A stretch of 64,000 nucleotides of DNA, from positions 3,260 to 67,259 of the forward strand of contig JAAHGR010000028.1 of the NCBI GenBank assembly GCA_010672425.1, given 5' to 3'. Positions 16,074-49,735 of this stretch are shown piece by piece. The notes below the pieces were generated by a model. That model saw nothing but the letters and a program-made list of their open reading frames with translations. It searched no databases and had not been told where the DNA came from. The DNA is from Symploca sp. SIO2E6 (GTDB lineage Bacteria; Cyanobacteriota; Cyanobacteriia; Cyanobacteriales; Coleofasciculaceae). How positions within the stretch are numbered: position 1 is the stretch's first letter; the number at the start of each line of letters is the position of its first letter. A program made the translations under genes and the position numbers.

Positions 16074-16085
16074 ACAAACTCCACC

Positions 16086-16292
16086 CTATGACCCTGAGCG
16101 AGTCTTGCTGCTTTTGAGATCGCCAACCATCACGATAAGCTCGGTTAGGCTGTTGTCTAACTCTTCCCCCAAAGCCTCTTGTGCATAAGGGCTTTGCTCC
16201 CTTGCAAGTCTTTGGGCGAGTACTTTTATTGACTCTAATTGTTGATACAACAACAAGAGATTTTTGTCAACACTAAAAGGAGGATTAGCCAT
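16086..16292 (-). CDS. Hypothetical small protein (weak call)
   Basis: 68-aa ORF. Its ATG shares the CATG with the divergent DUF488 start. Confidence 0.25.
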
Positions 16293-16713: not shown

Positions 16714-16895
16714 GAGTGTTTTCTATCACGCAAAAATCCCCCTCGGCAAACCTCAGTTTCAGCGAAGTACAAGCGAGGGGTGGAACTTGGTATGTTGTTC
16801 GGATGCATCTCTTGAGAAGTTTGGCTATTTGAGTTAGGCTTCTTTACCTTGGAGTAATGCTAGAGATGCCACACTAGTCCTAAATGGCTGGAGTT

Positions 16896-29004: not shown

Positions 29005-29190
29005 TGTTCCACAAAGGTTTAAGCCCCTTGGCTTGAACCTCAGATCCCGCCAGATGTGAGGTTCAAGCCGCCCAAAGGTTTTTCATCTACCACCATTTCA
29101 AAGGGTAAGGCAGTGCCGCAAGACTGCCCATCTCAAGCACTGCCTTACCCCCCAAAACAGGACAAATCGATCTCACTTGGAGAACTATTT

Positions 29191-30957: not shown

Positions 30958-31090
30958 CCAAACACCCCTCCTTGGACTATCCCTCATGATGCCATTCATA
31001 GCCTGGTGTCACCCCGTAAGCCAGCACCAGGCTGTAAATCATTCATGAACGCACCCACGCTTCAAGTATTGCCGATATTTCTTACCCCTC

Positions 31091-32059
31091 ATGTTTTTCC
31101 ATACAGAACTCATCTTTGATGAGACTCCTCCCGTCATCGATGCTATCCTAAAACGCCCAGATGCCATGCTGGTTATCAATTTAAGCGGTGGCAAGGACAG
31201 CTACGCCATGCTTCGCTACCTTGTAAGACTTCACGCCCAACGAGGCTACCAGGCACAGATTGTAGCAGTTCATGCCAACCTGGGACTGGCTGAATGGGAG
31301 GGAACCGAGGCAATTATTCATGCCCAATGCAGTGATGTTGGTATCCCACTCACCGTTGTCAGACGCAGCCGAGGTGGGCTGGTAAAACGGTTTTGGCAAC
31401 GGTGGCAAGCACTTCAAGCGGAAGGCAAAGATGTCCCACCGTTTAGCGACTCGAAAAATCGCTTTTGTACTTCGGATACTAAAGTGCAGCCAATAGACAA
31501 ATTTATTCGCACTTTTTCAAGTCGTATTGTTGTTAATGCAATGGGATTACGAGCGGAGGAAAGCACAAAACGAGCTAAAAAACCTGTATGCGCTGTCCGC
31601 CCTAGTATAACAACTAAACCACTCAAGAAATTGTCCCCAGAAGAGGCTTGGGAGCGATGGGAGGATGGCAGGTTGGCGATTGACTGGCTACCGATTCATC
31701 ATTTCCCGTTGGAGAGAGTCTGGCAGGAAGCTGGCAGCAGTGGCAAAGATTTAGAACGGAGACAACGGCTTTTTAACAAGGGAAAGATCACAGAAGCCTT
31801 GAGAGGCTGGCGAAACCACTATGCCTATGTGCTTGGCAACCAGAGGCTCTCCTGTGCGCTGTGCGTCTTTGCTGGAGCTAAAGAGCTAGCCCGTGGAGCC
31901 AGTTATCACCCGTTATTGTATGCCAATTACCGAAAACTTGAGGAGATAAGTGGCTACCACTTCAAAAAAGACCTTTCTCTACAAGATATTCCACTGTTTA
32001 CTCCCACAATTTCAGCACAGACACTTGCTTCAAAACTTTTGGAAGTTAGACACGGATAA
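31091..32059 (+). CDS. PAPS-reductase-family PP-loop ATP pyrophosphatase
   Basis: PP-loop NLSGGKDS. Later MGLRAEES and a C-terminal CALCVF cysteine pair. Confidence 0.7.
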   Translation: MFFHTELIFDETPPVIDAILKRPDAMLVINLSGGKDSYAMLRYLVRLHAQRGYQAQIVAVHANLGLAEWEGTEAIIHAQCSDVGIPLTVVRRSRGGLVKRFWQRWQALQAEGKDVPPFSDSKNRFCTSDTKVQPIDKFIRTFSSRIVVNAMGLRAEESTKRAKKPVCAVRPSITTKPLKKLSPEEAWERWEDGRLAIDWLPIHHFPLERVWQEAGSSGKDLERRQRLFNKGKITEALRGWRNHYAYVLGNQRLSCALCVFAGAKELARGASYHPLLYANYRKLEEISGYHFKKDLSLQDIPLFTPTISAQTLASKLLEVRHG

Positions 32060-32063
32060 CACC

Positions 32064-32735
32064 ATGCAACTGTCAATCTTTAAGCGTTCACTGAAATCAC
32101 TCTCAGAAGGCGCATACCACATTCCTGACTTTTTATCGCCTGAAGAACAGCAACACCTTCTGTCTACCTGCCGAAAATCGCTTCTTTCACTTCGTATGAA
32201 AGGCTTTGACTTGGAACACCCTAAGACTCACTTTGGGGAGATGAAGGTAGGTGTTGCCTCACTCGGACATTGGTGGAGACTTTATCAGCATTATCTCCCA
32301 CCGCGTGTGCCAGTGCCAGAGCTTATCTACGAGTTTTGCCAACGGGCAATAGCAGAAGTAGGGCTTGTGACCTTTGCAGGGATTGAAACGGTCTCAGCCA
32401 TCTTGCAGCATTATGACCCCTACAAAGTACCAGGAGTGAAATTAGGTCTTCATCGGGATGACAGCGAGGATACGTCACTCTTTGGAGCCGATGCCCCACC
32501 AGTCGTGTCTTTTTCCCTTGGCTGTGATGCCGTTTTTCTGTGGGGCGGAGCTGAGTATACCTCCCCAAAAGAAAAAGTAATTCTTCTTTCAGGAGATGTG
32601 GTGTTGTTCGGCGGACACTCAAGACTTTTTTATCACGGCATCAATAAAGTGCTGCCTGACACAGAGCCTACGTTCCTGAAAACACGAGGGAGACTTAACA
32701 TCACAGTGCGCCAAGCGGTACGAGCTGTGCAGTAA
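32064..32735 (+). CDS. alkB: AlkB-type Fe(II)/2-oxoglutarate dioxygenase
   Basis: HRD...H...RLNITVRQ catalytic pattern. ATG at 32064 lies 5 nt after the upstream stop. Confidence 0.8.
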   Translation: MQLSIFKRSLKSLSEGAYHIPDFLSPEEQQHLLSTCRKSLLSLRMKGFDLEHPKTHFGEMKVGVASLGHWWRLYQHYLPPRVPVPELIYEFCQRAIAEVGLVTFAGIETVSAILQHYDPYKVPGVKLGLHRDDSEDTSLFGADAPPVVSFSLGCDAVFLWGGAEYTSPKEKVILLSGDVVLFGGHSRLFYHGINKVLPDTEPTFLKTRGRLNITVRQAVRAVQ

Positions 32736-32756
32736 TAGCCTGTTACCTGTACTCCA

Positions 32757-32791
32757 CTGTTACAAAATGTACTATACTATGGTACATCTTG
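32757..32791. repeat. Degenerate copy of the 41-bp palindromic site
   Basis: ctgttacaaaatgtac tatactatg gtacatcttg; compare 33896-33936. Confidence 0.6.
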
Positions 32792-32989
32792 CCTTGTCCT
32801 TGAGAACTCATTCTTTTGTTTTACCGGAGCCTCTACCTTGGGCTGATGATCCGCCCAATTTTCTCTCATTTAACATCGGTCACTATGTACTCGCGGCAGT
32901 ACTGTACAGGTGTAAGCTACCATGTACTAAGAAAGAAAGCGGGGCAGACACCCCGCAAACCAATAAACATATTCACCCCTAAAAGTATC

Positions 32990-33877: not shown

Positions 33878-33895
33878 ACTACTTGCCAGTGTGTA

Positions 33896-33936
33896 CTGTT
33901 ACAAGATGTACTGTACTACGGTACATCTTGTAACAG
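33896..33936. repeat. Perfect 16-bp-arm palindrome with a 9-nt spacer
   Basis: ctgttacaagatgtac tgtactacg gtacatcttgtaacag, 4 nt from the recombinase stop codon. Confidence 0.85.
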
Positions 33937-33940
33937 TCCT

Positions 33941-34600
33941 TTATTCATCTACCACCTCTGTCTCTCTCTCTGCTTTTACTGGCTTGTTCTGTGTTACGTC
34001 AATATTTGTTAATTTATTGACATACGATATCTGAGAAAGGCTTGAGATTGCCCCCTTGACCTGCTCGTCGCTTACCGCCAAATATTCTTCCAGTGTAGCA
34101 AGAGATCGATGTCCACTTACCCGCTGGATAATTCTTAAAGGGACACGGCTGTTATGCATGGTGGTAAGTGCTGTACGGCGAAGGGAATGGGTTGAGGCTC
34201 CCTCAATCCCAATATCTTCAAGGGCAAGTCGTAAGATTCTTGAGGCTGACATAGGGTTAATATGCTTTTTGCCATGCCTTCCTGGAAACAGCCAATACTG
34301 GTGAAGCGGTGGACTGTACTCAGTAAGAAGAGCTTGCAAGTCTTCACCTACGGGAATGCAGCGGGTGTCAAGTTTTCCCTTGGTGTTTTTTTTACGGATA
34401 ATAAGCTCTGGTCTCACTTGCCGCTTTTTATCAAAAACGTCAACTCGCCGAAGCGTACACGCCTCGTTAATTCGAGCGGCTGTGTAAAGGCAGACTCCAA
34501 AGAGGCAGCGATCGCGAAGAGTTTGTAGTCCTTCACTGAACAAAAGCTGAATCTCTTCTACCGTTAAGACTTTACCTTTTCCGTGACGGTCGATTTTCAC
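33941..34600 (-). CDS. Short tyrosine recombinase (catalytic domain only, 219 aa)
   Basis: ARINEACTLRR, HSLRRTALT and GHRSLATLEEYL motifs. No N-terminal core-binding domain. Confidence 0.8.
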   Translation of the reverse strand: MKIDRHGKGKVLTVEEIQLLFSEGLQTLRDRCLFGVCLYTAARINEACTLRRVDVFDKKRQVRPELIIRKKNTKGKLDTRCIPVGEDLQALLTEYSPPLHQYWLFPGRHGKKHINPMSASRILRLALEDIGIEGASTHSLRRTALTTMHNSRVPLRIIQRVSGHRSLATLEEYLAVSDEQVKGAISSLSQISYVNKLTNIDVTQNKPVKAERETEVVDE

Positions 34601-34804
34601 CCTTTGATGCCACCTGTTATCTTTTTGGCAATCTTAAATTGTACCGCAAAAGAAAATCCCCTGCCTCGTGCAAAAGCAAGGGAGATGTATGGTGCTTTAG
34701 TAGTAGAGTTAAACTGTTATGCTTTCTCCATCTTCGGGTAGTTGACAGAACTCAGGGGAGATTTTAAGAATGTCTATTCTGCTGCTGTCGATTCATAGTA
34801 ACTT

Positions 34805-34966
34805 TTAGTACGTGTCAATTCGTGACCAGCCAGTAAAATCCATGATGTGGAAGAAGAAATCGTCCCATTCACCCGTGGCAATAGCTTGAACAGCCAGTGT
34901 TTCTAGTTGCTTTAGCCACTCCTCGTGTTGCTGACGGATAATATTTAGGTTCTGTTTCTGATTCAT
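34805..34966 (-). CDS. Hypothetical small protein
   Basis: AAGGAG Shine-Dalgarno before the ATG at 34966. 53 aa. Confidence 0.4.
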   Translation of the reverse strand: MNQKQNLNIIRQQHEEWLKQLETLAVQAIATGEWDDFFFHIMDFTGWSRIDTY

Positions 34967-35013
34967 GATGCTCCTTTGAGAAAATTTGGGTTGATGCATA
35001 CAGGATGGTTGTT

Positions 35014-35895
35014 CTAACGCCAGTACGGGGCTTCGGAGCATTGCTCTTTTATAAGCTTGAGTGCGACTGAAATAAGGTGGTCTTTTAAGACCACCTTGGT
35101 TTGGGGATATAAGACCAGTCCGGTGATTAGTCCTTCACACCAGTCTTTGGAACTGCCATCGGGAACCCAGGCTCTGACAATGCGCCGCAGGGCTGCTATT
35201 TCTTCGTCTGTCGGTTCAGGAGTTGGTGGTAACAGGGCTAAAGCTGAACGCTCATGTTTCACCGTCTCAAAAGGCAGTGATTCATCCTCATCTTCGTCAT
35301 AATCTTCATTGCGCTGACGGGCTTTTTCTGTCAGAAATTTGATGCCGTAATTGAGCCACAAATGTTTTTTGCTATCTAGCCCTCTTTGTTCCCAAGGGAT
35401 TGTAGCAGCCAGTTCTGTTAGTTCCTCAGCGGGATTATCACAGTAAAGCACATCCAACTCCTGTTCATACCAGTGGAGGAATGCTTCATCCATCTTGCGC
35501 AGGACTTGACGCTCATCAAGACGCGCTGTATCAGCTTTGAGGCTTTCTGTATCCAGTCCGCCTACGCCCAATTCTTCCAGTCCGTCTGCCCAGGCTTGCC
35601 AGTTAATCAGCCCTGGATTGAGTTTGATGGGTTCACTCAGCTCAACCCAGGCAAGTTCCAGTTTGAGAAAATCAGGGTGAGTGCTGGACAGGAGTGCGTT
35701 TCCTTGTTTGGCAATTGAATTATAAGCATCTTCTTTATCAGACACCCATTTGCCAAAGCCACCAATCAAAGCGTCGTTATAAGCAGCTATGGCTTCATTG
35801 AGCCGTTCTTCAGCTTTTTTCAAACGGGCAACCAGGTCGCGGGCTTGTTGAGCTTGTTCTGTAGTCAGTTTGGTCATTGTGCCTTTCTCTTTCAA
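35014..35895 (-). CDS. Hypothetical acidic protein (293 aa)
   Basis: Long ORF in the operon. No motif recognised. Confidence 0.55.
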   Translation of the reverse strand: MKEKGTMTKLTTEQAQQARDLVARLKKAEERLNEAIAAYNDALIGGFGKWVSDKEDAYNSIAKQGNALLSSTHPDFLKLELAWVELSEPIKLNPGLINWQAWADGLEELGVGGLDTESLKADTARLDERQVLRKMDEAFLHWYEQELDVLYCDNPAEELTELAATIPWEQRGLDSKKHLWLNYGIKFLTEKARQRNEDYDEDEDESLPFETVKHERSALALLPPTPEPTDEEIAALRRIVRAWVPDGSSKDWCEGLITGLVLYPQTKVVLKDHLISVALKLIKEQCSEAPYWR

Positions 35896-35903
35896 GTAGC
35901 TGT

Positions 35904-36089
35904 TTAGTTTTGGTGGGACTTTTGGCTGTTAAGTGCTGCTTGGTTTATCTGTAGCTGTGTGGTCTGATTCAAGACAATCGCTTCGGGCAGGGACAGGTCA
36001 TCCAGCTTCTCCATAAGCTCCAAATAGTCACAGCCAAAGCGTTCAGCCAGCTTTTGACAAGCAGCCGTGGTTTCTTTAGGGGTAAGCAT
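35904..36089 (-). CDS. Hypothetical small protein
   Basis: 61-aa ORF packed between operon genes. Confidence 0.4.
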   Translation of the reverse strand: MLTPKETTAACQKLAERFGCDYLELMEKLDDLSLPEAIVLNQTTQLQINQAALNSQKSHQN

Positions 36090-36132
36090 TTTCGTTCCTC
36101 CTTACAGATTCATCAATGTGTGAGCTGTTTCA

Positions 36133-37824
36133 TCAGGCGATACCCGCATCGTGGAGTATCTGCTCCAGCCTTTTTTTTGCAGCCTGGTAGCCTTTGGAGC
36201 CACCTTTTTTGGTTCCCCAGAGTTTGAAAATGATGTCATCTTTAGGCATTCCTGAACGCCTGAACTCAATGGCAAAACCTTTCTCTTCTGCGGTGATTTC
36301 CAGGCTGAACGGATCAAAAGGTTCAGCAGGTTCAAGAGGTTCAGGATTGCTGAACGCTTTATCCAGTAAGACGTTCAGCGTTTGAACTTCTTCTGGTTCA
36401 GGCGGGTTCACTGAACGTTCAGCAGGTTCAGTCGAACCTTTTTTGAACCCCACAAGGTTCAGCAAAAAATCTTCTGTCATCCATTCAGGAATCTTGCCTT
36501 CTGCCCTGCTGCCATCAAGTTCTTTGACTTTGAATTTGCCTGTACCTTTGATAGTTTCGAGTCCATCCTCGTCAATGGTTTTCTCACCTATGGTCTCAAC
36601 TCTGACTGTGCCGCTAAGGAATACCTTGACCAGCCCTTTGCTGCCAGGAAGAAAGGCTTGGGTCTCCCCGTGGACGATAAAGAGGGGATATTCGCCAAAT
36701 TTCATGGTCTCCCGCAGGGTAGAAGTTAAGACTTTGGTTAAATCTTCTGCTTCTACCACCTGATCCATTAGTCCAAACTCATCCCAGATGGTGGTAATTG
36801 AGCTAACTGTGCCGTCTTTGACCCGTTCGGCTAGCCCGTACCACTGTGTTCTGATAGCCGGATAGTCGCGCTTGCCGTTTTTGATACCGACAATCTGAAA
36901 CACATCAGGATAAGCATTTGTAGGTTCATAATGTGGGGTGCTGGCAATGACCTGATGGTCTGGCAGCAGTACCATTCTGAGTAGTGCGAGTTTCTTTGCC
37001 AGTGTGGTTTTGCCTGAGCGCTGTACCCCAACACAGCGGATTGGGTGAGACTTCACCAGACTTAACAGAGCTGGACATTCCTGGCGCAGGGCTTTGAGCA
37101 GCTCCTCCTTTGAACTTGGGGAACCAGTTATCTTATCTGTGGGGTTAGTAATTTCATCAACTGTCCCAGGATTGCCATGCGGCAGGGCTGCGGCTGTTGA
37201 GCCAGTGGCTTCTTTGATAGCTTGCTCTGCTGCTTGTTGAGCTTCAAGCCTTGCCTGTTCCTGGTAAAGTGCGATTTCTTCTGGAGAAAGCATGGATAAC
37301 TGCTTTGCTCTTGCTGCCCTGTCAGCACTAAACTGCCACAGCTCCCAATCAAGGTTGGCTGCGTATTCTACCTTACGGGCTTGATTAATCGCATTGATTT
37401 TACCGAGTAACCAACTCTGTTTAACCTCCTGGCGGTATTGAGGCATGAACTCCAGCAGTTTCCTGACTCTGGCTTGATTAAGCAGGTAAGCCAGTCCAAA
37501 CGCTGAAGCACTGATAAAGCCCCAAAGCGGCTTGTAGGGGTTGGTGGGCTTGATGATTCTAAGGGCTTTGGCTTTCTTGGGAATTTGGCTCTTGGGGTTG
37601 GAAGCTGGTGCGTTAACCAGTTTTTTAAATTCATGGGCTGGCATAATGTAGCGCTTGTCTGAAGTACAGAACTGCGGGTCATCAGACGGCTTAAAGCAAT
37701 ACTCAATGAGCATTGTCTGTCTGCCATAAAGCGCTCCGCCTAATGTGAGAATACCGATAGTCCCCAAAACGAGTACAGCACCAGTATTCCAGCGTTCCTG
37801 TTTGCGGAATTTATCAAGACTCAT
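36133..37824 (-). CDS. Membrane-anchored P-loop NTPase (FtsK/HerA/coupling-protein-like topology)
   Basis: Two N-terminal TMs (GAVLVLGTIGILTLGGALY; LWGFISASAFGLAYLL), Walker A GVQRSGKT, Walker B TTIWDEFG. Confidence 0.6.
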   Translation of the reverse strand: MSLDKFRKQERWNTGAVLVLGTIGILTLGGALYGRQTMLIEYCFKPSDDPQFCTSDKRYIMPAHEFKKLVNAPASNPKSQIPKKAKALRIIKPTNPYKPLWGFISASAFGLAYLLNQARVRKLLEFMPQYRQEVKQSWLLGKINAINQARKVEYAANLDWELWQFSADRAARAKQLSMLSPEEIALYQEQARLEAQQAAEQAIKEATGSTAAALPHGNPGTVDEITNPTDKITGSPSSKEELLKALRQECPALLSLVKSHPIRCVGVQRSGKTTLAKKLALLRMVLLPDHQVIASTPHYEPTNAYPDVFQIVGIKNGKRDYPAIRTQWYGLAERVKDGTVSSITTIWDEFGLMDQVVEAEDLTKVLTSTLRETMKFGEYPLFIVHGETQAFLPGSKGLVKVFLSGTVRVETIGEKTIDEDGLETIKGTGKFKVKELDGSRAEGKIPEWMTEDFLLNLVGFKKGSTEPAERSVNPPEPEEVQTLNVLLDKAFSNPEPLEPAEPFDPFSLEITAEEKGFAIEFRRSGMPKDDIIFKLWGTKKGGSKGYQAAKKRLEQILHDAGIA

Positions 37825-38405
37825 GACTTCCTCCCGAAAATGACTAGGATTGTCAGGAGGACAAAGATTGTCACGAGTGCAACACCTGGCTTTGTCCAGA
37901 CAGGATTAACAGGCTCGGTAACCTCAAAAGCTTTGACTTCTTCAAGAAACTGTTTGGCTCCTTTGTGAGATGCTTTGGAGACTTCCCCACTTTCGCCAGA
38001 GAAAGCAAGTAAAGCAGCGCCTACAGCTCCGGTTTTTACCGCTTCAGTCCAGAAGTCTCCATCAATTTTGGGATGTCCGTTGGTTATAGTTATTTTGGTA
38101 AGCGTGTGAGCAGTAAAGAGGGCTAAGGCAATACCCCCGATGGTTGCCGTAGCCAATCCTGGAATTCCCCATCTGGCAAACAACAGCAGACTTTCACCTA
38201 CAGCAGAGAAGCCCAGAAAAGTCACCAGCGCCGAGGATATCATCCGGTGTTGGCTAAAAGCTGCTTCAATTTCTTCTGAGAGCCTTTCGTTATCTAGCTC
38301 TTCGGACGTTTCAGGCGGACGCTCATTCTCATTCCTCACCTGAAATCCTTGAATTAACTCGTTGAAATCGTCCATCGTATCTACCTTTTGAGACTTTTGT
38401 GTCAA
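37821..38405 (-). CDS. Polytopic membrane protein
   Basis: Several hydrophobic helices (ALVTFLGFSAV, IGGIALALFTAHTL, GAVGAALLAF, VALVTIFVLLTILVIF). 4-nt overlap with the next gene. Confidence 0.55.
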   Translation of the reverse strand: MTQKSQKVDTMDDFNELIQGFQVRNENERPPETSEELDNERLSEEIEAAFSQHRMISSALVTFLGFSAVGESLLLFARWGIPGLATATIGGIALALFTAHTLTKITITNGHPKIDGDFWTEAVKTGAVGAALLAFSGESGEVSKASHKGAKQFLEEVKAFEVTEPVNPVWTKPGVALVTIFVLLTILVIFGRKS

Positions 38406-38447
38406 AGCAGCGCTGAATGAGGAAGCGCTGCCTTTTTCATGAGTTGG

Positions 38448-39125
38448 TTAGATACCAAACGTGTCTTTAAAGCCTTTCCAGAGCTTTCCTAGTCCGTAGG
38501 CACTGCCTTTGTAGTTGGGCTTGGGAATTTTGCTTAAGTCAGCTTCTGAGCCTTTAGCCCAGAGCGTTGCAGCAACAGCTTTGTCATATTCGATGTCAGC
38601 TTGCTGTTGTGCCAGTGGGATTTTGTTCTGTTCTCTGGTAAGAGCAGTCTGGTATCTGACCAATGCCATCAAGTCAGCCGTATAGCCGCGAACCTGAATC
38701 AAGCTTGTTTGCCGCAAATGCCTGGAGGTCTCAGCACTTACGTCGTTAGCGTATTTGGATGAAGCCTCGGTTAGCTCGTTAGCAAAGCGTTTTTCTGCCA
38801 ACTGAGAGTCCAGAATGGCTGTCGTGACCAGTTTGCCGGACTTCTGAGTTTGTTTGACCAGCTCTGAGAGAGCTTTATTGAGATCACCGGTGGTTTCAAT
38901 CGTGAGCTTCGCCGCTTGCAGTGCAGGCTCAAGGTTTGTTTGGGTCAGCTCAGAGAGTCTGCCAAGGTCTGAGAGCTTTTTGATAGATTCGTGGTCGCCG
39001 TGACAAGCTTTGAGGAAATCGTGAACACTGATGCCAAACAGATTGTGCATAGCATTAAGTGTTCCAGGTGCAGCAGAGCTGACATGGTTTTTATGCTTGG
39101 CTTTTCCGAAGTTTCTTCGTTTCAT
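38448..39125 (-). CDS. Hypothetical helical protein (225 aa)
   Basis: ORF in the operon. No motif recognised. Confidence 0.5.
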   Translation of the reverse strand: MKRRNFGKAKHKNHVSSAAPGTLNAMHNLFGISVHDFLKACHGDHESIKKLSDLGRLSELTQTNLEPALQAAKLTIETTGDLNKALSELVKQTQKSGKLVTTAILDSQLAEKRFANELTEASSKYANDVSAETSRHLRQTSLIQVRGYTADLMALVRYQTALTREQNKIPLAQQQADIEYDKAVAATLWAKGSEADLSKIPKPNYKGSAYGLGKLWKGFKDTFGI

Positions 39126-39289
39126 TAGTCCTCTTCTTCTTCAATAGGGGCAGTGCTTTCCAGTCCAATGCCTGTACGGGTTATGTACAGGCAGAAGCCA
39201 AAGGCTTCCACCAGGGTTGTGCAACGAGAAAGATGCATGATTTTTACCCCTGGTGGGTCTGGCTTCTGTGGGAAAAATCGAATGAACAT
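39125..39289 (-). CDS. 54-aa protein missed by the ORF track
   Basis: The ATG overlaps the upstream stop (TAATG) and its own stop overlaps the downstream ATG (TAATG). MFIRFFPQKPD...APIEEEED. Confidence 0.45.
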   Translation of the reverse strand: MFIRFFPQKPDPPGVKIMHLSRCTTLVEAFGFCLYITRTGIGLESTAPIEEEED

Positions 39290-39453
39290 TACTGATTTGT
39301 GGTGAGAATGGTTTTGACTGGTGTTGAGGTAGGCTCTGGTAATGGTTCAGGTTTGACAGCGCTTGCTATGAGGTAAGCGGCTGTGCCTGTTGCTACAGCT
39401 AAACTTGTAATTGCTACCACATCAGTGGTGGTGATTGGAGTCTGCTTAACCAT
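39289..39453 (-). CDS. 54-aa single-pass membrane protein
   Basis: AGGAGGG Shine-Dalgarno before the ATG at 39453. TM VVAITSLAVATGTAAYLIASAV. Confidence 0.5.
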   Translation of the reverse strand: MVKQTPITTTDVVAITSLAVATGTAAYLIASAVKPEPLPEPTSTPVKTILTTNQ

Positions 39454-39458
39454 TTGAG

Positions 39459-39677
39459 TTAGCCCTCCTGCTTTTCGACAAGAGTTGACTGCTGCCTTTG
39501 AGCAATAAGCCAAGTACGTGCATCAAGGACGGCTTTAAGCTCTGGACTGCCTTGAGCAAGAGGGACTGTCAGCTCACCTGAAGCTTGGCGGTCAAGGGCT
39601 TCAGCCGCAGCAGCAGCTTGATTAACGGGCACACCAGCTCTTTCAAGTTGAGCTTGGAATCGCTGTTTTCTGTCCAT
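39459..39677 (-). CDS. Hypothetical small protein
   Basis: 72-aa ORF, 1-nt overlap with the upstream gene. Confidence 0.45.
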   Translation of the reverse strand: MDRKQRFQAQLERAGVPVNQAAAAAEALDRQASGELTVPLAQGSPELKAVLDARTWLIAQRQQSTLVEKQEG

Positions 39678-39886
39678 CAGCCGATCCTCCGGTACATAAA
39701 AGAGTTTCGGGCAGAGCCACTGCTGGCTTGCTCAGGAATATCAGCCTCATCCATATCAGCAATGGTTTCCGACCAGCCAGAGGTAGGATTTAAGATGTTT
39801 TGCTGTGCGACAGCACCCAAGCCTGGGTTGGCAGCTTCAAAAGCCTGAACTACTTTTTGTTCTTTAGGTGTAAGTTCTCTTGTCAT
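39677..39886 (-). CDS. Hypothetical small protein
   Basis: 69-aa ORF, 4-nt overlap with the upstream gene. Confidence 0.45.
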   Translation of the reverse strand: MTRELTPKEQKVVQAFEAANPGLGAVAQQNILNPTSGWSETIADMDEADIPEQASSGSARNSFMYRRIG

Positions 39887-40113
39887 GCTTCTGCTCCATT
39901 AGCTTTAACGGGCTGGTCTGTATCTTCAGCAATCCATTCGTCGATAAGCTGCTGACACATACTCCAATCGCGTTCAAGAAGGAGCTTATGGAGCTTTGCT
40001 GTTCGTTCAGCGCAGATTTGTTCCCATTGGCTTAGGACTGGTGGTTGCCAGTTCATTGCTGTCTCGACAAAAGACGGGCGGTCAACTAGCGACCGAATAT
40101 CGGAAATATTCAT
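39883..40113 (-). CDS. Hypothetical small protein
   Basis: 76-aa ORF in the operon. Confidence 0.45.
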   Translation of the reverse strand: MNISDIRSLVDRPSFVETAMNWQPPVLSQWEQICAERTAKLHKLLLERDWSMCQQLIDEWIAEDTDQPVKANGAEA

Positions 40114-40125
40114 CTTTTTGCCTCC

Positions 40126-40848
40126 TTATACAGCCACATCAACTGGAGTGATACCGAGCAGTTCAGCCACACTTTTGTGTCCCTGCTCTTCTTCTGTTAG
40201 AGTCAGCAGATGCGAGGCAATGGATGTGTTTGGAACTGAGAAGTCTGCCTGTTCTGGGTAGCAATACATGGTAAAGCCAGGTTCGTCTTCTGTCCCTTCG
40301 TGACAGACGCCCTCACCCCAGAAATATTCGCCAACTTCCCACTGGAAATGTCCAACAGGAAAGTCGGTGCCCTCCTCAAGACCAGGAGCTGAAGGGAGTG
40401 GACGGTAGTAGCAGGTGTAGTAGATGCTTGGTTGTGGCTGTTCTTCTTCTTCCCAGGCACCTTCTTCAAAAACCAGCACCATTTCAAAGTCGGGATAGCG
40501 CTCTTTGGATTCTTGATACCAGTCACGAAGCTGTTCTTGTGAGAAAATATGCAGGGTTAAATTGCCCTCAATCTCATGTTCTGTATGTGTTAGAACCCAC
40601 TCAAGCACCTCATAGCGCATCTTTGCGGTAAGATGTCCACCTCGTTTGTGAATCTGCTGATAATCGGTATCACAGAATACATCGCAGTGGCTACCAATGC
40701 GAAAGAGTACATCATCCCGCTGTTCAAAGGTGGCGTCTTGCTGGTTAAATTCCCCAACCTGCTTGGCGATATAGTTGGGATTTACGCCTTCGGGTAGAGC
40801 TGCTGGAGGCATGGCTCCAGGCTCCTGGAACGTGGTGTGTTGTATCAT
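40126..40848 (-). CDS. Hypothetical acidic protein (240 aa)
   Basis: ORF in the operon. No motif recognised. Confidence 0.55.
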   Translation of the reverse strand: MIQHTTFQEPGAMPPAALPEGVNPNYIAKQVGEFNQQDATFEQRDDVLFRIGSHCDVFCDTDYQQIHKRGGHLTAKMRYEVLEWVLTHTEHEIEGNLTLHIFSQEQLRDWYQESKERYPDFEMVLVFEEGAWEEEEQPQPSIYYTCYYRPLPSAPGLEEGTDFPVGHFQWEVGEYFWGEGVCHEGTEDEPGFTMYCYPEQADFSVPNTSIASHLLTLTEEEQGHKSVAELLGITPVDVAV

Positions 40849-41023
40849 GAGAAGGTTTCCTCAATTTCATTTGGTGGAATTGGGTGGAAATGAGCGCCAG
40901 CACTGAAACTTTGGACGGTTAGCGGTGCTGGTTCTCTTTTGGGCTGAAAAACTGGGAGTCAGTGTAAAGTTTGTACCTCCGTAATATTCCGTAGATAATG
41001 GAGTAAGATTGGAGTCTGGTGGA

Positions 41024-41347
41024 TCAGGAATTAAGAAGCTGATTAAGCGCATCTTCAGCACTCACCGTTGATGGTGGATCTGTTTGACTATCCTGGGGTA
41101 TTTCCTTGTCTTGCTGGCAATTTTGTCCCGCTTTGTCCAGCTCGGCGTTGGCTAAAACGGGATGAATAGTCCCGAAGTTTCTAGCCTCTGGCCGCAGCCG
41201 TTCCAATGCTGCCAGGATTTGTGTCTGAATGAGGTATCCGATAGCATCAGTGACCGAAACACCGCCTAAGCTGCTCATCAGATCCAACACAGCTTGTTGG
41301 TGCTGTGCTTTGATGGTGGCTCTCATCGGTGATTTTCTATCGCTCAT
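41024..41347 (-). CDS. ParR-like ribbon-helix-helix adaptor candidate
   Basis: Directly follows ParM with an ATGA overlap. N-terminus RATIKAQHQQAVLDLMSSLGGVSVTDAIGYLI has a strand-helix-helix pattern. Confidence 0.4.
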   Translation of the reverse strand: MSDRKSPMRATIKAQHQQAVLDLMSSLGGVSVTDAIGYLIQTQILAALERLRPEARNFGTIHPVLANAELDKAGQNCQQDKEIPQDSQTDPPSTVSAEDALNQLLNS

Positions 41348-42309
41348 GCTGCCATCGCCTTGCGTTTTTGCACTTTGGTTTCGGGAAGGAGACCACGAAC
41401 ATTGGCAAACCTGGGTTCAGGAATGACGGTAAAAAGTGGAGCCACTTCTACTTTGTGTGCAATAAGATGAGATGCCCCACCAGTCACCAAGAACTTTCTG
41501 ACACGGGGAAGGTACGGTTGATACTGATTCCTGACCTCACCAAAAATGCCTTTGAACCAAGGTTCAAGGTGTTCATCAAGCCAGTTTTTCCAACTGGCAT
41601 CTGGATTGTTGGGATAGTGGTGAGAGCAATCAGCAAAACCGTTGGCAATCAGTCCCGCATCTGGTTTATCACCGAGTACTTTTGTCAGGCGTTCATCGAA
41701 TTTGATAGCTGTGGCTAAATCGTAAGCGCCACCCCGTTTGGAAACCGTAGAGTCGATAATCTCTCCCTCTTCATCAATCAGGCGTGAAAGCCACGTACCA
41801 CCACCGATATCAATCACGACGGTAAAGCCAGTTTCAGGAACAAGCCCAAGTGACTTGGCGTACTGGTAAGCAGGATAGCCTTCATGAGCAATATGTACCG
41901 CCTTAATGTGGGCTTTAATAAGGTGTCCGTTTCGCTTGTAGCAGACCGTCCTGATAAGCTGTTGGCGCATGGTATCACCAGCTTTTTCCGGTTCAGGGTG
42001 GGATGTATGAATGGTCAGGGTAAATTCCGGTTCATACTGTTCGATACAAGCCAGCGCGTTTAGGAGTGCTACCTGCTCTTTTTCCTCTTCGACGGTATGG
42101 GACTGCCGACGGTATTTATACGCCTGATAGCCGAAGTGATACCGTTTGCCATCGAATTCAATGAGTGGGCTGGTGTTGCTTGAACTCAACGGAAAACGTC
42201 CGTTTGGGAGTTGGAAACGGACAGAGCGTATGGCTTTTGGCTTGTTACTGCCGTCAAAGTATTTGAGATCGAAATTCCCTTCATCAAGGGCTAGGGTGTA
42301 GTTTTTCAT
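41344..42309 (-). CDS. ParM/StbA-like actin-family segregation ATPase
   Basis: N-terminal LALDEGNFDLKY (phosphate 1) and VVIDIGGGTW (phosphate 2) actin-fold motifs. About 320 aa. Confidence 0.65.
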   Translation of the reverse strand: MKNYTLALDEGNFDLKYFDGSNKPKAIRSVRFQLPNGRFPLSSSNTSPLIEFDGKRYHFGYQAYKYRRQSHTVEEEKEQVALLNALACIEQYEPEFTLTIHTSHPEPEKAGDTMRQQLIRTVCYKRNGHLIKAHIKAVHIAHEGYPAYQYAKSLGLVPETGFTVVIDIGGGTWLSRLIDEEGEIIDSTVSKRGGAYDLATAIKFDERLTKVLGDKPDAGLIANGFADCSHHYPNNPDASWKNWLDEHLEPWFKGIFGEVRNQYQPYLPRVRKFLVTGGASHLIAHKVEVAPLFTVIPEPRFANVRGLLPETKVQKRKAMAA

Positions 42310-42329
42310 GGAACAAAAGAACTAAACGA

Positions 42330-42557
42330 CTAGGGTTTTGTGGGATCAGAAGCACTCTCGCAGTGTCCTGCGCGTGACGGGAAAATGCCACCTTGCTTGA
42401 GTTTTTTGGCTCTAGCGGCTTCTGCTGCGCCATAGACGGTAATGAGATACTTCACCGCGCTACTTCTAGCGGTAAATCCGCACATACGTTGTAAAGATTC
42501 AAGAATTTCCAAGTGCTCATCATCAAGGAAAAATCTTATTTCTTTGCGGCTAATCAT
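42330..42557 (-). CDS. Ribbon-helix-helix (CopG/Arc-like) regulator
   Basis: KEIRFFLDDEHLEILESLQRMCGFTARSSAVKYLI strand-helix-helix pattern. First gene of the operon. Confidence 0.5.
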   Translation of the reverse strand: MISRKEIRFFLDDEHLEILESLQRMCGFTARSSAVKYLITVYGAAEAARAKKLKQGGIFPSRAGHCESASDPTKP

Positions 42558-42843
42558 AGAAATCCCTCCTCACAGCATGAGGATCTGTTCGTTTTGGCAT
42601 AGTGAGAATCTGGTGAAACAGTGGTGGAGACCCTCTCCGCCTTGTCATCACGACGTTATGGGTAACGCTGGATGGCTTTGGGAGGGGGAAAGGTATTGAG
42701 CTGGTGAATCTTTACCTTTGCTTATCAGCATAGCAGGTTTTGCTGTAATGTGCAGCAAAAAATACTAAAATAATTTGATTCATTTCACTGAAGCGCTGCG
42801 CAGCACTGGAATGTTTTGCGCTGTAAGGTGTACATTAGTATGT

Positions 42844-43050
42844 ATGGCACAAGACCGCGCATCCGTAGACCTGAGAAACATCAGACATCGGGTAGAAAAT
42901 GCCCGTAGCGATAAAGCATGGCAACTTCTTCCCTTGTCCAAGAAAATAAGGCTCTTGCTTGAAGAGCGACTTGACCAAATTGAGAAGGAGGCTCAGGACT
43001 TAGAAGAAGACCCCACCGAAAAACCCGAAAAAAAACAATCTGGCAAATAA
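42844..43050 (+). CDS. Hypothetical small protein upstream of rep
   Basis: Internal ATG of ORF 42775..43050. Followed by a terminator-like hairpin. Confidence 0.3.
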   Translation: MAQDRASVDLRNIRHRVENARSDKAWQLLPLSKKIRLLLEERLDQIEKEAQDLEEDPTEKPEKKQSGK

Positions 43051-43072
43051 TTTGCCTGTCCGCACAAAAAAA

Positions 43073-43100
43073 TCCCCTATCCAGCAAGGATGGGGTTTTG
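43073..43100 (+). terminator. Rho-independent terminator candidate
   Basis: cccctatcc agcaa ggatgggg followed by tttt. Confidence 0.45.
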
Positions 43101-43446
43101 TCCGAAACGTAAAACCAGCCTACAGGCAAAAATCCTATAGACTGGTTTTAGATGAGTTTTGACAGACTCATTGTTTTCAATTTAAGGACGCAGGTTTATC
43201 TGGCAGATAACACCAAACGTCATCGTTGACCGAAACGTGCCGAAAGTTTGGCGACAGGAAGCACGTATTCTAGGTCACAAAGCAAGCGCGGGTTTTCCCC
43301 TAGCTTTGTTCCATTCTAACTGAAAAAAGCTTATCACATTCTTTCATCAGAAAGAAGACAGCTTTTTTCCCTTATGAATAGGATTTCGGTGATGTGGTGA
43401 ATCTCTGCCTTAGTGCCCATGTTGCACAAGGAAGTAGAGGTTAATC

Positions 43447-45381
43447 ATGTTTGTCACGCAGCAAGACGCCAGTGACGGTACATCTGGCAAAGCGGCTCAA
43501 AAACGCCGCCGTCGTAGCTTTCTGGAAATATGGAAAGAAACGTTTACCAAAGCCGAGGAAGCCAAGTCTCGCCAGCATTTTGCACATACGGATGATCAGG
43601 CGTTTAATACCCTGCTAAAGTTCCTGGGCGAGAACTTGTTCAATGTAATTGTGCGGGAAAACCTTCAGGGCGCAAACTGGATTACTCAGCACAAGTACCC
43701 TACCCCACCGCGCAATCTGCAAGAAATGTACCACGATAAGAATCTGATTGTGGGGATGCGCTTCAATATCCTGACACAAGTGCTGATTATTGACCTTGAT
43801 CGAGGGTCACTGTACCACCCATACAATGATTTTCCAGAATACCGCCGACTGTTGGGTATTCTGGAGGATATGGGCTTAGTAGGCGTGGAAGTGGTACAAA
43901 GCAGCTTTAGCGAAGGTATTCACCTGTATATTCCACTGCCGAAACCAGTACCAAGCTGGTTAGCAGCCCATGCGTTGTATGTGGTGCTATCAAAAGCCAA
44001 ATTCCGCATTGTCAAAGGGCACTTAGAGATATTCCCCAACCGCAAAGGGTATAGTCCAGATACGATTATCAATTACAACGGGATTCGCTTGCCTTTGCAA
44101 CCAGGCACAGGCAGTTATGTTTTAGACTCGCTGACTTTGGCTCCGGTCCACGGTAATCTGAACCTATTTGTCAAGCATTTGAAACATCATGCGCGGCGGC
44201 AAGACATGGTGGCTTTTCGGCAAGTGATGGAAGGAGCCTATGAAGATTTTGGGGTGAGCAGCAGTGGGTTTGTCAAAGGCAGAAATGGCAGCGCAGCCGA
44301 GTGGCATAATGATTTACTGGTCAGGCTCTCTCAAGGGTGGACAGGAGATGCCCAAACAAATGACTTGGTATTTGAAGCAGTAAAAGAAGCTTATGTGTTT
44401 CAGAAGCTTGACGGGGAAGAGCTGGTGGAGAGAACGGCTGCATATATGCGATCGCTTCCAGGTTATAAGCAGTATTGCGGGCATCAGCACAACCTGGAGC
44501 AGCGAGTGAGAGACTGGCTCAAATCCACCAAGAACCTCGGTTACTATCCGTATACAGGGGAATACCGCCCCCGAAGCAGTTCGCCGCATTATGGTAGCAC
44601 AGTGGCATTAACTTCAGCAGCAGGTCATGAGGATGGGAGGAAGCATAATCCGGCAAATGCAGCGAGGGTAAAAGAATCGCGCAGCAGGCTGGCTCATGTA
44701 GAAAGATTAATCCGCAAAGGAATCCGAGAAAAAAGTATCACGGGGATACCTCAGACAATCAGTGGTGTGATGGACTTCCTGAGCAAAATAGCCAAAGAAG
44801 AATTGGGCACAGGATTCAGCAGAGCTTTTTTACAAAAATACAAAGAGTCAATCGAAAGGTTACGGCGGTTTGCGGAAAGATGTCGGGAAAAAATAGCAAG
44901 GGAAAGAGAAAGAGTAGCTGCAGAAAAACCATCAGTAGAAAGGCCAGAACCAGCACCAGTGGAGGAGTCACTGGCATTTTGTGGAAAAGCCGGAGCAGAT
45001 AAGGGAGCTCAAAGCAGCATGGCAAAAGGGATTACTGGCAATCGGGACAATAATGAAGGTGGAGGGCATCACGAATCCGTTTCTGAAGTGCCCCAATTAT
45101 CTCTCCATGAGCGCATTAACCTCTACCGCTCCTCCAGGACAATTTTGCGGTACACAGGTCGCGTAGCCTCTAATTTGGTTCAAGTACTTTTCTCAAAATC
45201 GACTTCATCAAGATTTCAGTGCAGATCCATTGAACCAGGGGATCTGGTTCAGCTTACTGATGAGGTTCACTCAAGAGAAGACCGAGACGGTATGGTTTGT
45301 GTCAAACTTGTTCAAGAGCCACCAGGAGAACAATGGCTTGGCAGCATTTTTGTTCAAGTTGATAAACTTGTTCCTGTGTGA
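43447..45381 (+). CDS. Putative replication protein with a primase-polymerase (AEP)-like N-terminal domain
   Basis: LIIDLDRG (DxD) and SFSEGIHLYIPL (sGxH) resemble AEP motifs I and II. 644 aa with a basic C-terminal half. Confidence 0.45.
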   Translation: MFVTQQDASDGTSGKAAQKRRRRSFLEIWKETFTKAEEAKSRQHFAHTDDQAFNTLLKFLGENLFNVIVRENLQGANWITQHKYPTPPRNLQEMYHDKNLIVGMRFNILTQVLIIDLDRGSLYHPYNDFPEYRRLLGILEDMGLVGVEVVQSSFSEGIHLYIPLPKPVPSWLAAHALYVVLSKAKFRIVKGHLEIFPNRKGYSPDTIINYNGIRLPLQPGTGSYVLDSLTLAPVHGNLNLFVKHLKHHARRQDMVAFRQVMEGAYEDFGVSSSGFVKGRNGSAAEWHNDLLVRLSQGWTGDAQTNDLVFEAVKEAYVFQKLDGEELVERTAAYMRSLPGYKQYCGHQHNLEQRVRDWLKSTKNLGYYPYTGEYRPRSSSPHYGSTVALTSAAGHEDGRKHNPANAARVKESRSRLAHVERLIRKGIREKSITGIPQTISGVMDFLSKIAKEELGTGFSRAFLQKYKESIERLRRFAERCREKIARERERVAAEKPSVERPEPAPVEESLAFCGKAGADKGAQSSMAKGITGNRDNNEGGGHHESVSEVPQLSLHERINLYRSSRTILRYTGRVASNLVQVLFSKSTSSRFQCRSIEPGDLVQLTDEVHSREDRDGMVCVKLVQEPPGEQWLGSIFVQVDKLVPV

Positions 45382-49078: not shown

Positions 49079-49735
49079 ATGACTTCCAATGAAAGCAGAA
49101 AACCCATAACTATCGGCTTCGTCAACCAAAAAGGAGGCGTAGGGAAGACAACACTAGCTGTCCACTGTGCATATTGGTTGAGCCAACGTGGTTCTGTGAT
49201 TGTGATCGATGCTGATGCCCAACAGAGCAGCTCAAATTGGCTCAAAGATCTAAATCTTCCTTGTAAAGTAATCAACGACCCAGAAGATATTTTGGATATA
49301 CTCTCAGTTTTACCAGAGAAGTATGATGCTGTCGTAGTAGATGGACCAGGTGGAATGAGCGAAGTGACCAAAGCAATTCTCTACGGAGTTGATGTAGCTT
49401 TGGTGCCATGCAAGCCCTCGGCTTTGGACACTCACAGCAGTAGCCGAATTATTCGTATGATTAGACAATCTCAGAAGATACGAGGCGGTAAACCTAAAGC
49501 TGCCATGTTTCTGAATCAAGCGGTAAAGGGAACTCTCCTCCTGCGCGACTCAAAGGAGATGCTTAAACATTTTGGTTTTCCTTACCTCAATAGCGTTATT
49601 TATAATCGACAGGTTATATGTGATGCCCCAGGACAAGGCGCAACAGTCTGGGGGCTTTCTGGCACTGCTGCACAAGCTGCTAATAAGGATTTTGAGGGAA
49701 TTTTTCGAGAAGTCATGGAGTTTGCCCATGAGTAA
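49079..49735 (+). CDS. parA: ParA partition ATPase
   Basis: Deviant Walker A NQKGGVGKTT. Size and context. Confidence 0.85.
   Translation: MTSNESRKPITIGFVNQKGGVGKTTLAVHCAYWLSQRGSVIVIDADAQQSSSNWLKDLNLPCKVINDPEDILDILSVLPEKYDAVVVDGPGGMSEVTKAILYGVDVALVPCKPSALDTHSSSRIIRMIRQSQKIRGGKPKAAMFLNQAVKGTLLLRDSKEMLKHFGFPYLNSVIYNRQVICDAPGQGATVWGLSGTAAQAANKDFEGIFREVMEFAHE

Follow-up and report, generated by a model that had tools for sequence, protein, structure and literature searches.

What is the function of a run of sixteen genes, most of them matching no recognized family, on a cyanobacterial replicon? The question is raised by a stretch of 64,000 nucleotides from Symploca sp. SIO2E6 (GenBank assembly GCA_010672425.1, contig JAAHGR010000028.1, positions 3,260 to 67,259; hereafter the window), a conjugative-plasmid-like replicon in which sixteen consecutive open reading frames (ORFs; orf1 to orf16) lie on the minus strand from position 42557 to 33941. 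The run had been noted in an earlier inspection of the letters alone (the sequence-only reading) and was confirmed in the ORF list. Our analysis indicates that it is a mosaic whose core is a conserved block, orf4 to orf12, ending in a membrane ATPase of FtsK-like predicted fold with an array of short DNA repeats at the 3' end of its gene. The reading that we favor, tentatively and at somewhat less than even confidence, is that orf4–orf12 encode a plasmid DNA translocase analogous to the TraB/clt/Spd systems of Streptomyces, with a loading site and an accessory membrane complex.

The membrane ATPase

Two features are central to the argument:

36133 to 37824, minus strand: orf12, a membrane ATPase of 563 residues
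36257 to 36461, both strands: array of 16 copies of (C)TGAAC(C/G), within the codons of the disordered linker of the ATPase

The sequence-only reading had taken orf12 for a P-loop NTPase with two transmembrane (TM) helices, and this is borne out by its AlphaFold2 model (predicted local distance difference test score, pLDDT, 80.5). In the N-terminal half, TM1 is followed by a beta-rich periplasmic domain with a conserved cysteine, by TM2 and by a coiled coil of ∼90 residues. The C-terminal half consists of a motor of RecA/FtsK fold (residues ∼240–460; Walker A GVQRSGKT, Walker B IWDEF), a disordered linker (464–505) and a three-helix bundle (512–559). The top matches to this model in the PDB, obtained with Foldseek, were TcpA (6o1w, 5.6e-6) and the FtsK motor (6t8b, 2e-5), then RecA.

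By sequence, the motor is an orphan: a search of 1.84 billion representatives returned 132 relatives at E <= 1e-3, the shortest being fragments of ∼100 residues and the longest proteins of 650. More than 120 homologues of orf12 are known from these data, and those that carry an organism name are cyanobacterial. Some relatives gave weak Pfam matches to DUF87/HerA, AAA_10, FtsK_SpoIIIE and P-loop_TraG, with FtsK_SpoIIIE (PF01580) reaching E = 0.0046 in only 3 of 34, and some gave weak matches to the winged-helix families HTH_IclR, MarR_2 and RPA_C. The matches of 36 distant motor relatives that were sampled were likewise weak and mostly to generic P-loop families. Searches of PDB sequences with the ATPase, a Nostoc-type ATPase and distant relatives, using both single sequences and profiles, returned generic P-loop matches only, and a search with the N-terminal domain for fusions to type IV coupling protein (T4CP) or FtsK domains returned seven uninformative fragments. 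Within the family (related loci are designated by L and a number), the ATPases of L059 (a Symploca contig, taken as the closest relative) and L001 are 94% and 67% identical to orf12, respectively. Over its N-terminal 235 residues, orf12 shares 41% identity with Nostoc proteins of 607–630 residues that have a different motor variant, and profile-profile comparison of the window and Nostoc-type ATPases gave a probability of 99.4.

FtsK/HerA-fold ATPases package DNA in membrane-containing viruses, and on another reading the block would serve morphogenesis or packaging in a cryptic membrane-containing virus or a vesicle-forming plasmid, with the ATPase as its packaging motor. Viral fold matches of orf12 (BFVD) include FtsK translocases, A32-like packaging ATPases, a Corticoviridae NTPase and a Zot protein, although most of the matches are unnamed or unrelated; there is a weak match to phrog_29669 (1.9e-5), the block contains many small membrane and acidic proteins, and a homologue occurs on an IMG/VR contig. 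This contig is, however, the only one among 2.9 million, and a tblastn search against 50,697 phage records gave no match. Furthermore, no capsid, portal or lysis gene was recognized, PHROG matches are limited to the ATPase (weakly), the ParM-like protein and the integrase, and the module always lies amid plasmid replication and partition genes. A phage-like element, which the sequence-only reading had kept as an alternative, thus finds little support, and we regard it as highly improbable.

The repeat array

The 16 copies of the CTGAAC motif occupy 205 bp, compared with a background of 0.55 copies per 200 bp. The coding strand carries nine of them and the other seven are inverted; among the copies is the palindrome CTGAACGTTCAG. 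In a k-mer scan the array was the densest 6-mer cluster of the 64-kb window (11 versus 5 for the next best). It is the strongest sequence feature of the block and had been overlooked in the earlier inspection.

The same motif is conserved in L001, L009 and L059. Most other relatives have an analogous array directly after the stop codon of the ATPase gene, typically composed of two forward copies followed by an inverted block. At 46 of 51 loci, a single 6-mer occurs at least six times per 200-nt window at the 3' end of the ATPase gene, which is true of 1.25% of background windows, and at 38 of the 51 this cluster is the maximum of the locus. Since many of the Nostoc loci are close relatives, the number of motif types, nine across the related loci, is a fairer count of independent cases. 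These include ACGGCA (the Nostoc L008 type), AGACACC (the pCC7120delta type), GACACC (L004) and GGTAGCA (L003, with 15 copies in two inverted blocks); GCGACA, CGTGCC and CTCAAC were found in further relatives.

Where the array lies within codons, the DNA itself appears to be held. Compared with L001, synonymous codons are identical at 31 of 39 positions in the array and at 145 of 323 elsewhere (Fisher p = 6e-5); compared with L059, the counts are 48 of 51 and 372 of 458 (p = 0.019), despite a lower amino-acid identity in the array. Across loci, the motif tracks the C-terminal domain of the ATPase and neither the Rep protein nor the family found at the ParR position. The natural chimera L020 combines a motor of the L008/L052 type with a C-terminus of the L007 type (98 residues, 75% identical), and its repeats are AGACAC, again of the L007 type; L052, which has the same motor type as L020 and a different C-terminus, has no AGACAC array. 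Taken together, these comparisons suggest that the array functions at the DNA level and is linked to the C-terminus of the ATPase, and they make it a candidate clt-like cis site for the C-terminal domain.

Three other explanations of the array were rejected. It is not well explained as a parC site for ParR, as it is kept in L059, which lacks ParMR, and as one ParR-position family of Nostoc is common to loci with different motifs. Iterons of the Rep protein were discounted because the motif is independent of Rep type. A by-product of Glu-Pro codons would account for neither the seven inverted copies, nor the suppressed synonymous change, nor the intergenic position in most relatives.

The conserved block and its distribution

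The genes that precede the ATPase in the block are as follows:

40126 to 40848, minus strand: orf4, 240 residues, acidic (isoelectric point 4.4), first gene of the conserved block
39125 to 40113, minus strand: orf5 to orf9, of 76, 69, 72, 74 (probably 54) and 54 residues, with start/stop overlaps
38448 to 39125, minus strand: orf10, 225 residues, basic, all-helical
37821 to 38405, minus strand: orf11, 194 residues, a membrane protein with three TM-like segments, overlapping the ATPase gene by 4 nt

Three proteins, orf10, orf11 and the ATPase, make up the core of the block. Conservation within the module is highest in orf10 (47% identity to Nostoc homologues and 74–94% to closer ones), which occurs at 52 loci and on 35 plasmids of PLSDB. 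Its AlphaFold2 model is of low confidence (pLDDT 54) and consists of long helices, and neither single nor profile searches found a match among PDB sequences. Homologues of orf11 were found at 47 loci, invariably between orf10 and the ATPase. Gene order in other cyanobacterial replicons had been named in the sequence-only reading as a point to check, and an order of ParM-like gene, four to six small genes, orf10, orf11 and ATPase does recur at ∼50 loci, among them the complete plasmids pCC7120delta and pNPUN04. Among the papers that could be searched, none was found to describe this orf10–orf11–ATPase module.

The small genes are more variable. The product of orf4 is 37% identical to a 275-residue protein of L002, and DNA homology to L059 begins within this gene (40809–36143, 85.7% identity). 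The products of orf5–orf9 are poorly conserved outside close relatives and recall the Spd proteins in this respect. To judge from their codons the small ORFs are real genes under purifying selection, as 45–76% of the changed codons between orf4–orf11 and the L059 orthologues are synonymous-only. Six of the small products are acidic. TM-like segments in orf8 (one segment), orf11 and orf12 agree with the three membrane-spanning products counted earlier, and the products that had been left without a family indeed gave no Pfam, PHROG, NCBIfam or PADLOC match.

A single- or double-pass membrane ATPase of FtsK fold paired with several acidic proteins of 54–107 residues is also what a type VII-like protein exporter would look like, the ATPase exporting the small acidic helical proteins encoded beside it, and pMIC7113.08 carries an FHA-domain gene. 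The motor is, however, a single domain, no match to the WXG100 or EccC/EssC families was obtained, and the conserved repeat array with its tracking C-terminal domain points to DNA as the substrate. We consider protein export a very doubtful function for the module.

All but one of the loci are named as cyanobacterial, and every named cyanobacterial host is filamentous. The genera include Symploca, Caldora, Coleofasciculus, Allocoleopsis, Phormidesmis, Potamolinea, Nostoc, Anabaena, Calothrix, Tolypothrix, Cylindrospermopsis, Trichormus, Mojavia and Dendronalium, among others. The exception is a single 4.6-kb contig from a bin labelled Acetobacteraceae, which is taken to be mis-binned. One metagenome-assembled genome (MAG) is Merismopedia according to NCBI, and the same proteins are assigned to Symploca in nr. 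The nearest relatives of the block are on Symploca MAG contigs (94–96% protein identity), and a megablast search of PLSDB with the block found no near-identical plasmid. The 35 PLSDB plasmids with orf10 are from Nostoc (19), Calothrix (11), Anabaena (2), Tolypothrix (1), Allocoleopsis (1) and Cylindrospermopsis (1); by the mobility typing of that database, 20 are non-mobilizable (no relaxase called), 15 are mobilizable and none is conjugative. In L002 (1–3643) and L003 (1–3067), chromosomal copies of the module lie ∼6–10 kb from XisA/XisC-type integrases (XisAC_N) and from genes for helicase-like proteins of 809–855 residues. This neighborhood suggests that the chromosomal copies belong to integrative elements, and may mean that the module is present in some heterocyst-type excision elements.

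These plasmid data bear on the possibility that the ATPase is a divergent T4CP, which would hand a single strand processed by a relaxase to a type IV secretion system (T4SS) of the same or a co-resident plasmid, with the array as part of an origin of transfer (oriT)/relaxosome region. In RefSeq, Nostoc homologues (L008, 8893–10716; pNPUN04; WP_012413369.1) bear the PGAP name 'type IV secretory system conjugative DNA transfer family protein'. The N-terminal two-TM topology fits a coupling protein, the pCC7120delta homologue weakly matches the SXT TraD coupling-protein model (3.4e-4), and TcpA is itself a coupling protein. In L005 a MOBQ-type relaxase and a NikA-like gene lie 2 kb downstream, the window has T4SS genes, and the 15 plasmids typed as mobilizable would also be accommodated. 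Nevertheless, the name given to the Nostoc proteins appears unsupported, because no T4CP model matches at E <= 0.01 (Pfam) or 0.1 (NCBIfam): T4SS-DNA_transf, TrwB_AAD_bind and TraG-D_C were found neither in orf12 nor in the Nostoc homologues, whereas the two genuine T4CPs of the window match such models at 1e-29 to 1e-38. Furthermore, 20 of the 35 plasmids have no relaxase call and none has a recognized mating-pair system, and the combination of a repeat array with a neighboring C-terminal domain for site-specific DNA binding is foreign to T4CPs. A coupling protein is therefore an unlikely identity for orf12.

Two observations concern the surroundings of the module in other hosts. In Nostoc-type modules, a conserved protein of 217–223 residues is encoded after the repeat array (L007, 11854–12525; L005, 8700–9353; many other Nostoc loci). 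It is annotated as a response-regulator transcription factor in pCC7120delta, the L005 member has a GerE domain, and no such gene is present in the window; the protein could be a regulator of the module. In L061 (Phormidesmis priestleyi, a 33-kb contig; 11122–17635), a type III-A (Csm) CRISPR-Cas operon follows immediately downstream of the module.

A putative plasmid DNA translocase

In TraB, an FtsK-like membrane ATPase, the C-terminus recognizes the direct repeats of 8 bp that make up clt (PMC4447253). We take orf4–orf12 for a DNA translocase because their anatomy matches the Streptomyces TraB system feature by feature. Under this proposal, the ATPase would be anchored in the cytoplasmic membrane by its two TM helices and the conserved periplasmic domain, and its C-terminal helical domain, presumably helix-turn-helix (HTH)-like, would recognize the CTGAAC array encoded in its own linker region. 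The motor would then pump double-stranded plasmid DNA across a membrane or septum, with an accessory complex made up of orf10, orf11 and the rapidly evolving small proteins, both membrane and acidic. A likely role would be to move or distribute plasmid copies between neighboring cells of the filament; both the confinement of the module to filamentous hosts and the common lack of a relaxase are in keeping with the movement of double-stranded DNA (dsDNA) between cells along filaments. The sequence-only reading had already drawn the comparison with TcpA and with TraB plus Spd proteins, and this proved to be its best-supported suggestion, given that TcpA and FtsK are the top structural matches and that a clt-like array lies at the 3' end of the ATPase gene.

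The likeness to the TraB/clt/Spd systems (pSVH1, pIJ101 and the pSAM2-type actinomycete integrative and conjugative elements) extends to most of their parts. Both have a membrane-associated FtsK-fold ATPase as the sole NTPase, and a C-terminal DNA-recognition domain (putative in the cyanobacterial proteins) paired with a short-repeat array beside or inside the gene. Both have small, diverse, translationally coupled genes, some for membrane proteins, without detectable homologues between plasmids. Both occur in multicellular filamentous hosts, on small plasmids as well as on integrated elements that carry genes for an integrase and for replication, and in most replicons neither depends on a recognized relaxase. 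The differences are as definite. The cyanobacterial ATPase falls outside FtsK_SpoIIIE by sequence, and its two TM helices are accompanied by a conserved periplasmic domain that contains Cys and by a long coiled coil; its repeats are of 6–7 bp, in both orientations and often in two inverted blocks; the hosts are diderm; the module is usually headed by a ParM-like gene; and the conserved partners orf10 and orf11 have no counterpart in the TraB systems.

Two other translocases share part of this anatomy. TcpA, likewise encoded on a plasmid (pCW3 of Clostridium perfringens), gave the best structural match to the motor and is also anchored in the membrane at its N-terminus. Its identity to orf12 is, however, only 14–15%, it has no known repeat array, and its partners (the VirB4-like TcpF, the VirB6-like TcpH and the relaxase TcpM) are all missing from the module. 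FtsK and SpoIIIE, the former being the second-best fold match, also combine a membrane anchor, a linker, a RecA-fold motor and a C-terminal domain reading short oriented motifs (KOPS and SRS), a function that is only predicted for the cyanobacterial domain. FtsK differs in being chromosomal, in having at least four TM helices and motifs dispersed over the genome rather than in a local array, and in showing no sequence-level relation to orf12.

Several points weigh against the translocase proposal. The fold match is modest, with a TM-score of ∼0.4 on the target and RecA close behind. By sequence, orf12 has no Pfam, NCBIfam or PDB match and no membership in the FtsK/SpoIIIE, HerA, VirB4 or VirD4 families, and the HTH nature of its C-terminal domain is a three-helix prediction only. 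Five of the 51 loci, including the ParM-less pMIC7113.08 and pANA03, have no clear array, and the link between motif and C-terminal domain could be one of simple physical linkage, the two being adjacent. An additional transfer system is not obviously needed in the window, because a TrwC relaxase, two T4CPs and a TrbI-like gene are already present. As cyanobacteria are diderm, the DNA would have to cross septal peptidoglycan or an outer membrane, for which the proposal has no explanation, and a literature search found no evidence of such transfer in cyanobacteria, experimental or published.

To our knowledge, dsDNA conjugation by a single FtsK-like pump is known from mycelial actinomycetes only. 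What appears to be new here is a putative FtsK-fold plasmid translocase with a repeat array in another phylum, with an orphan motor, a distinctive membrane/periplasmic domain and two conserved partners. A comparable module in the other great multicellular filamentous lineage would suggest that this mode of transfer goes with a filamentous body plan. Dozens of plasmids of Nostoc, Calothrix, Anabaena and Symploca-type hosts, typed as non-mobilizable or merely mobilizable, have the module as part of their backbone; given these calls by typing tools, the mobility of such plasmids, and of the natural-product and symbiosis genes that they can carry, may be underestimated.

A more far-reaching version of the proposal is a hitherto unrecognized route, independent of relaxases, for plasmids in filamentous cyanobacteria. 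The FtsK-fold ATPase would load on plasmid-specific repeats of 6–7 bp by means of an exchangeable C-terminal domain and, together with orf10, orf11 and Spd-like proteins, would pump dsDNA through the septum along the filament and possibly between filaments. We consider this full version rather unlikely as stated. If true, it would be an independent or anciently related counterpart, in a diderm phototroph, of TraB/clt conjugation in Streptomyces. The module would make dsDNA conjugation outside actinomycetes directly testable, since the model strain Anabaena/Nostoc PCC 7120 has a copy on pCC7120delta. Arrays with matching C-terminal domains could furthermore supply orthogonal DNA-moving parts for cyanobacterial engineering.

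The ParM/ParR-like cassette

The module of the window is headed by three genes:

42330 to 42557, minus strand: orf1, 75 residues, basic, a ribbon-helix-helix (RHH)/CopG-like regulator by sequence pattern only; first gene of the cassette
41344 to 42309, minus strand: orf2, 321 residues, a ParM-like actin-fold ATPase
41024 to 41347, minus strand: orf3, 107 residues, acidic, a ParR-like adaptor by position

Five products had been assigned by the sequence-only reading. The ParM-like protein, the P-loop NTPase and the tyrosine recombinase stood; the two RHH proteins (orf1 and orf3) remain sequence patterns, as neither matched a Pfam, PHROG or NCBIfam family. The ParM-like assignment of orf2 rests on a PHROG 'partition protein' family (phrog_691, 3.4e-22, residues 4–308) and on a weak match to ALP_N (0.002) that is under the Pfam cut-off; homologues of orf2 are found at the head of the module at 42 loci. 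The gene for orf3 is coupled to parM by a 4-nt overlap, and its position and size fit ParR. Its homologues are restricted to L001, L002 and L009, and a homologue of orf1 was seen only in the near-identical locus L009.

Compared with ParMRC of plasmid R1, the cassette has a ParM family member in orf2, a gene at the ParR position with a 4-nt overlap, and an RHH gene before both. It differs in having no parC-like array upstream (none was found in 42558–43446), in being joined to a nine-gene block downstream, and in being replaceable or apparently missing. In L059, unrelated genes for proteins of 113, 227 and 80 residues take its place, and in pMIC7113.08 and pANA03 no ParM-sized gene is annotated alongside the orf10–orf11–ATPase triad. 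The sole array of the locus sits 6 kb downstream and is kept in L059 without ParMR. As a separate observation, the window plasmid has two partition systems, a ParA/ParB pair adjoining RepA (49079–50660) and the ParM/ParR-like cassette (41024–42309).

The main rival reading is that the module serves plasmid segregation or anchoring. The ATPase would bind the array as a centromere and work with ParMR, tethering plasmids to the membrane or, in the manner of FtsK/SpoIIIE at a closing septum, clearing plasmid DNA into both daughter cells. At most loci the block is co-oriented with the ParM-like gene and internally it is translationally coupled; centromeres typically comprise arrays of short repeats in both orientations; the fold of the motor is FtsK-like; and the module is a backbone feature adjoining replication genes, on plasmids of which 20 of 35 have no relaxase called. 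On the other hand, module plasmids also have a complete ParA/ParB (the window; Nostoc HK-01 plasmid4), ParMR is dispensable (L059 and, apparently, pMIC7113.08 and pANA03), and an integral membrane protein with a conserved periplasmic domain would be without precedent among known partition ATPases. Segregation is, in our estimate, a fairly improbable function, clearly behind the DNA translocase, from which it differs more in biology than in biochemistry.

Layout of the sixteen genes

Three further features bear on whether the sixteen genes form a single operon:

41023 to 40849: gap of 175 nt between orf3 and orf4
34804 to 34601: gap of 204 nt between orf15 and the recombinase gene
34657 to 34683, minus strand: terminator-like hairpin with a T-run, within the 204-nt gap preceding the recombinase gene

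The overlaps on which the idea of one translationally coupled unit had been based are real, with 4 nt at 41347/41344, 39886/39883 and 37824/37821 and 1 nt at 39677, 39289 and 39125. Packing is tight at these junctions and is interrupted by the gaps of 175 and 204 nt. A single sixteen-gene operon is not upheld by the comparisons: the run is a mosaic in which ParMR can be replaced, orf13–15 are variable and the recombinase is set apart. The genes are best read as four units, namely the ParMR cassette, the conserved orf4–orf12, a variable tail and a separate recombinase gene. Scans of the window with Rfam and for tRNAs found nothing, and a defence system was rejected because PADLOC gave no match.

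Variable tail, recombinase and inverted repeats

The remaining features of the run and of its downstream flank are:

34805 to 36089, minus strand: orf13 to orf15, of 61, 293 and 78 residues, acidic; variable tail
33941 to 34600, minus strand: orf16, a tyrosine recombinase of 219 residues without an N-terminal core-binding domain
33895 to 33937: inverted repeat of 43 bp between the convergent kfrA and recombinase genes, with 17-nt perfect arms and a 9-nt center
32756 to 32798: second, partial copy of the motif, upstream of kfrA; core CAANATGTAC-N9-GTACATCTTG, listed also as CAAAATGTAC-N9-GTACATCTTG

Together, orf13–15 are found only in the near-identical L009; an orf15 homologue occurs elsewhere in L001, and L059 has genes for proteins of 57 and 204 residues at this position instead. 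The recombinase gene is probably a separate transcription unit. As had been proposed, its product comprises the catalytic domain only, matching PF00589 (1.5e-22, residues 11–179 of 219), the integrase family phrog_216 (3e-34) and, weakly, the FimB/E-type invertase model NF007370 (1e-5), and the motifs TAARINE, HSLRR and GHRS...EEY, which represent the R..K..HxxR..H..Y set of residues, are present in the translation. It is an intact tyrosine recombinase, most simply one for plasmid multimer resolution or inversion. It shares the PF00589 domain with the short FimB/FimE- and Xer-type enzymes and, at ∼200 residues without a core-binding domain, resembles FimB/E, but it scores far under all curated cut-offs. 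Homologues of 189 residues (55% identity) lie 2.6–6 kb downstream of the ATPase gene at four Nostoc loci, and in L003 the recombinase gene is on the opposite strand.

The sequence-only reading had described a perfect 41-bp palindrome abutting this gene and had likened the recombinase to the relaxase TcpM acting on it. The repeat is in fact 43 bp long with one mismatched pair; its 21-nt arms are 95% complementary, and it also scores as a terminator-like hairpin. The comparison with TcpM is not supported: the recombinase is an unremarkable member of PF00589, and the motif occurs on either side of kfrA and was not found beside the Nostoc homologues of the recombinase. Common to the two kfrA-flanking sites are 10-nt arms, CAAGATGTAC/GTACATCTTG, with a 9-nt center; 0.03–0.08 matches to the second copy are expected by chance, and both copies flank kfrA in L059 too, with different outer arms. 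As a dedicated recombinase site the palindrome is poorly supported, being duplicated on the far side of kfrA and not conserved beside the homologues. The inverted repeat may belong to KfrA, as operator or terminator, as plausibly as to the recombinase, and the pair of motifs could serve KfrA as an operator, act as a bidirectional terminator or be the site of a recombinase.

Replicon context

Elsewhere in the window, the following genes were recognized:

54438 to 57098: TrwC relaxase
6822 to 8555 and 57043 to 59124: the two genuine T4CPs, with the matches to T4CP models given above
3527 to 5602: weak TrbI-like protein
49079 to 49735: ParA
49572 to 50660: ParB
10476 to 16073, plus strand: Sno-type helicase/methylase of 1865 residues, with a weak N6-methylase match and Strawberry-notch-type helicase domains (AAA_34, Helicase_C_4)
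43447 to 45381, plus strand: gene for a protein of 644 residues, divergent from the block, without a Pfam, NCBIfam or PADLOC match

RepA, KfrA and RecD2 are also encoded, and no VirB4 was recognized among the window ORFs scanned. Sno-type helicase/methylase proteins are often borne by conjugative plasmids. The 644-residue protein has hhhDLD and GIHLY motifs that resemble those of archaeo-eukaryotic primase-polymerases, and L009 and Nostoc HK-01 plasmid4 encode homologues (70% and 37%, respectively) in the corresponding divergent position. On the strength of these motifs, it is a candidate replication protein of the element.

An odd trio of genes lies upstream of kfrA (29056–32735). It consists of a gene for a 633-residue protein whose sole match is to MutS domain I at its C-terminus, a gene for a 3'-phosphoadenosine 5'-phosphosulfate (PAPS)-reductase/PP-loop protein (31091–32059) and an overlapping gene for an AlkB-like 2-oxoglutarate-Fe(II) oxygenase (31950–32735), which adjoins kfrA in L059 as well. 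Lastly, a second tyrosine recombinase, full-length with a SAM-like N-terminal domain and PF00589, is encoded at 19455–20342 on the minus strand.

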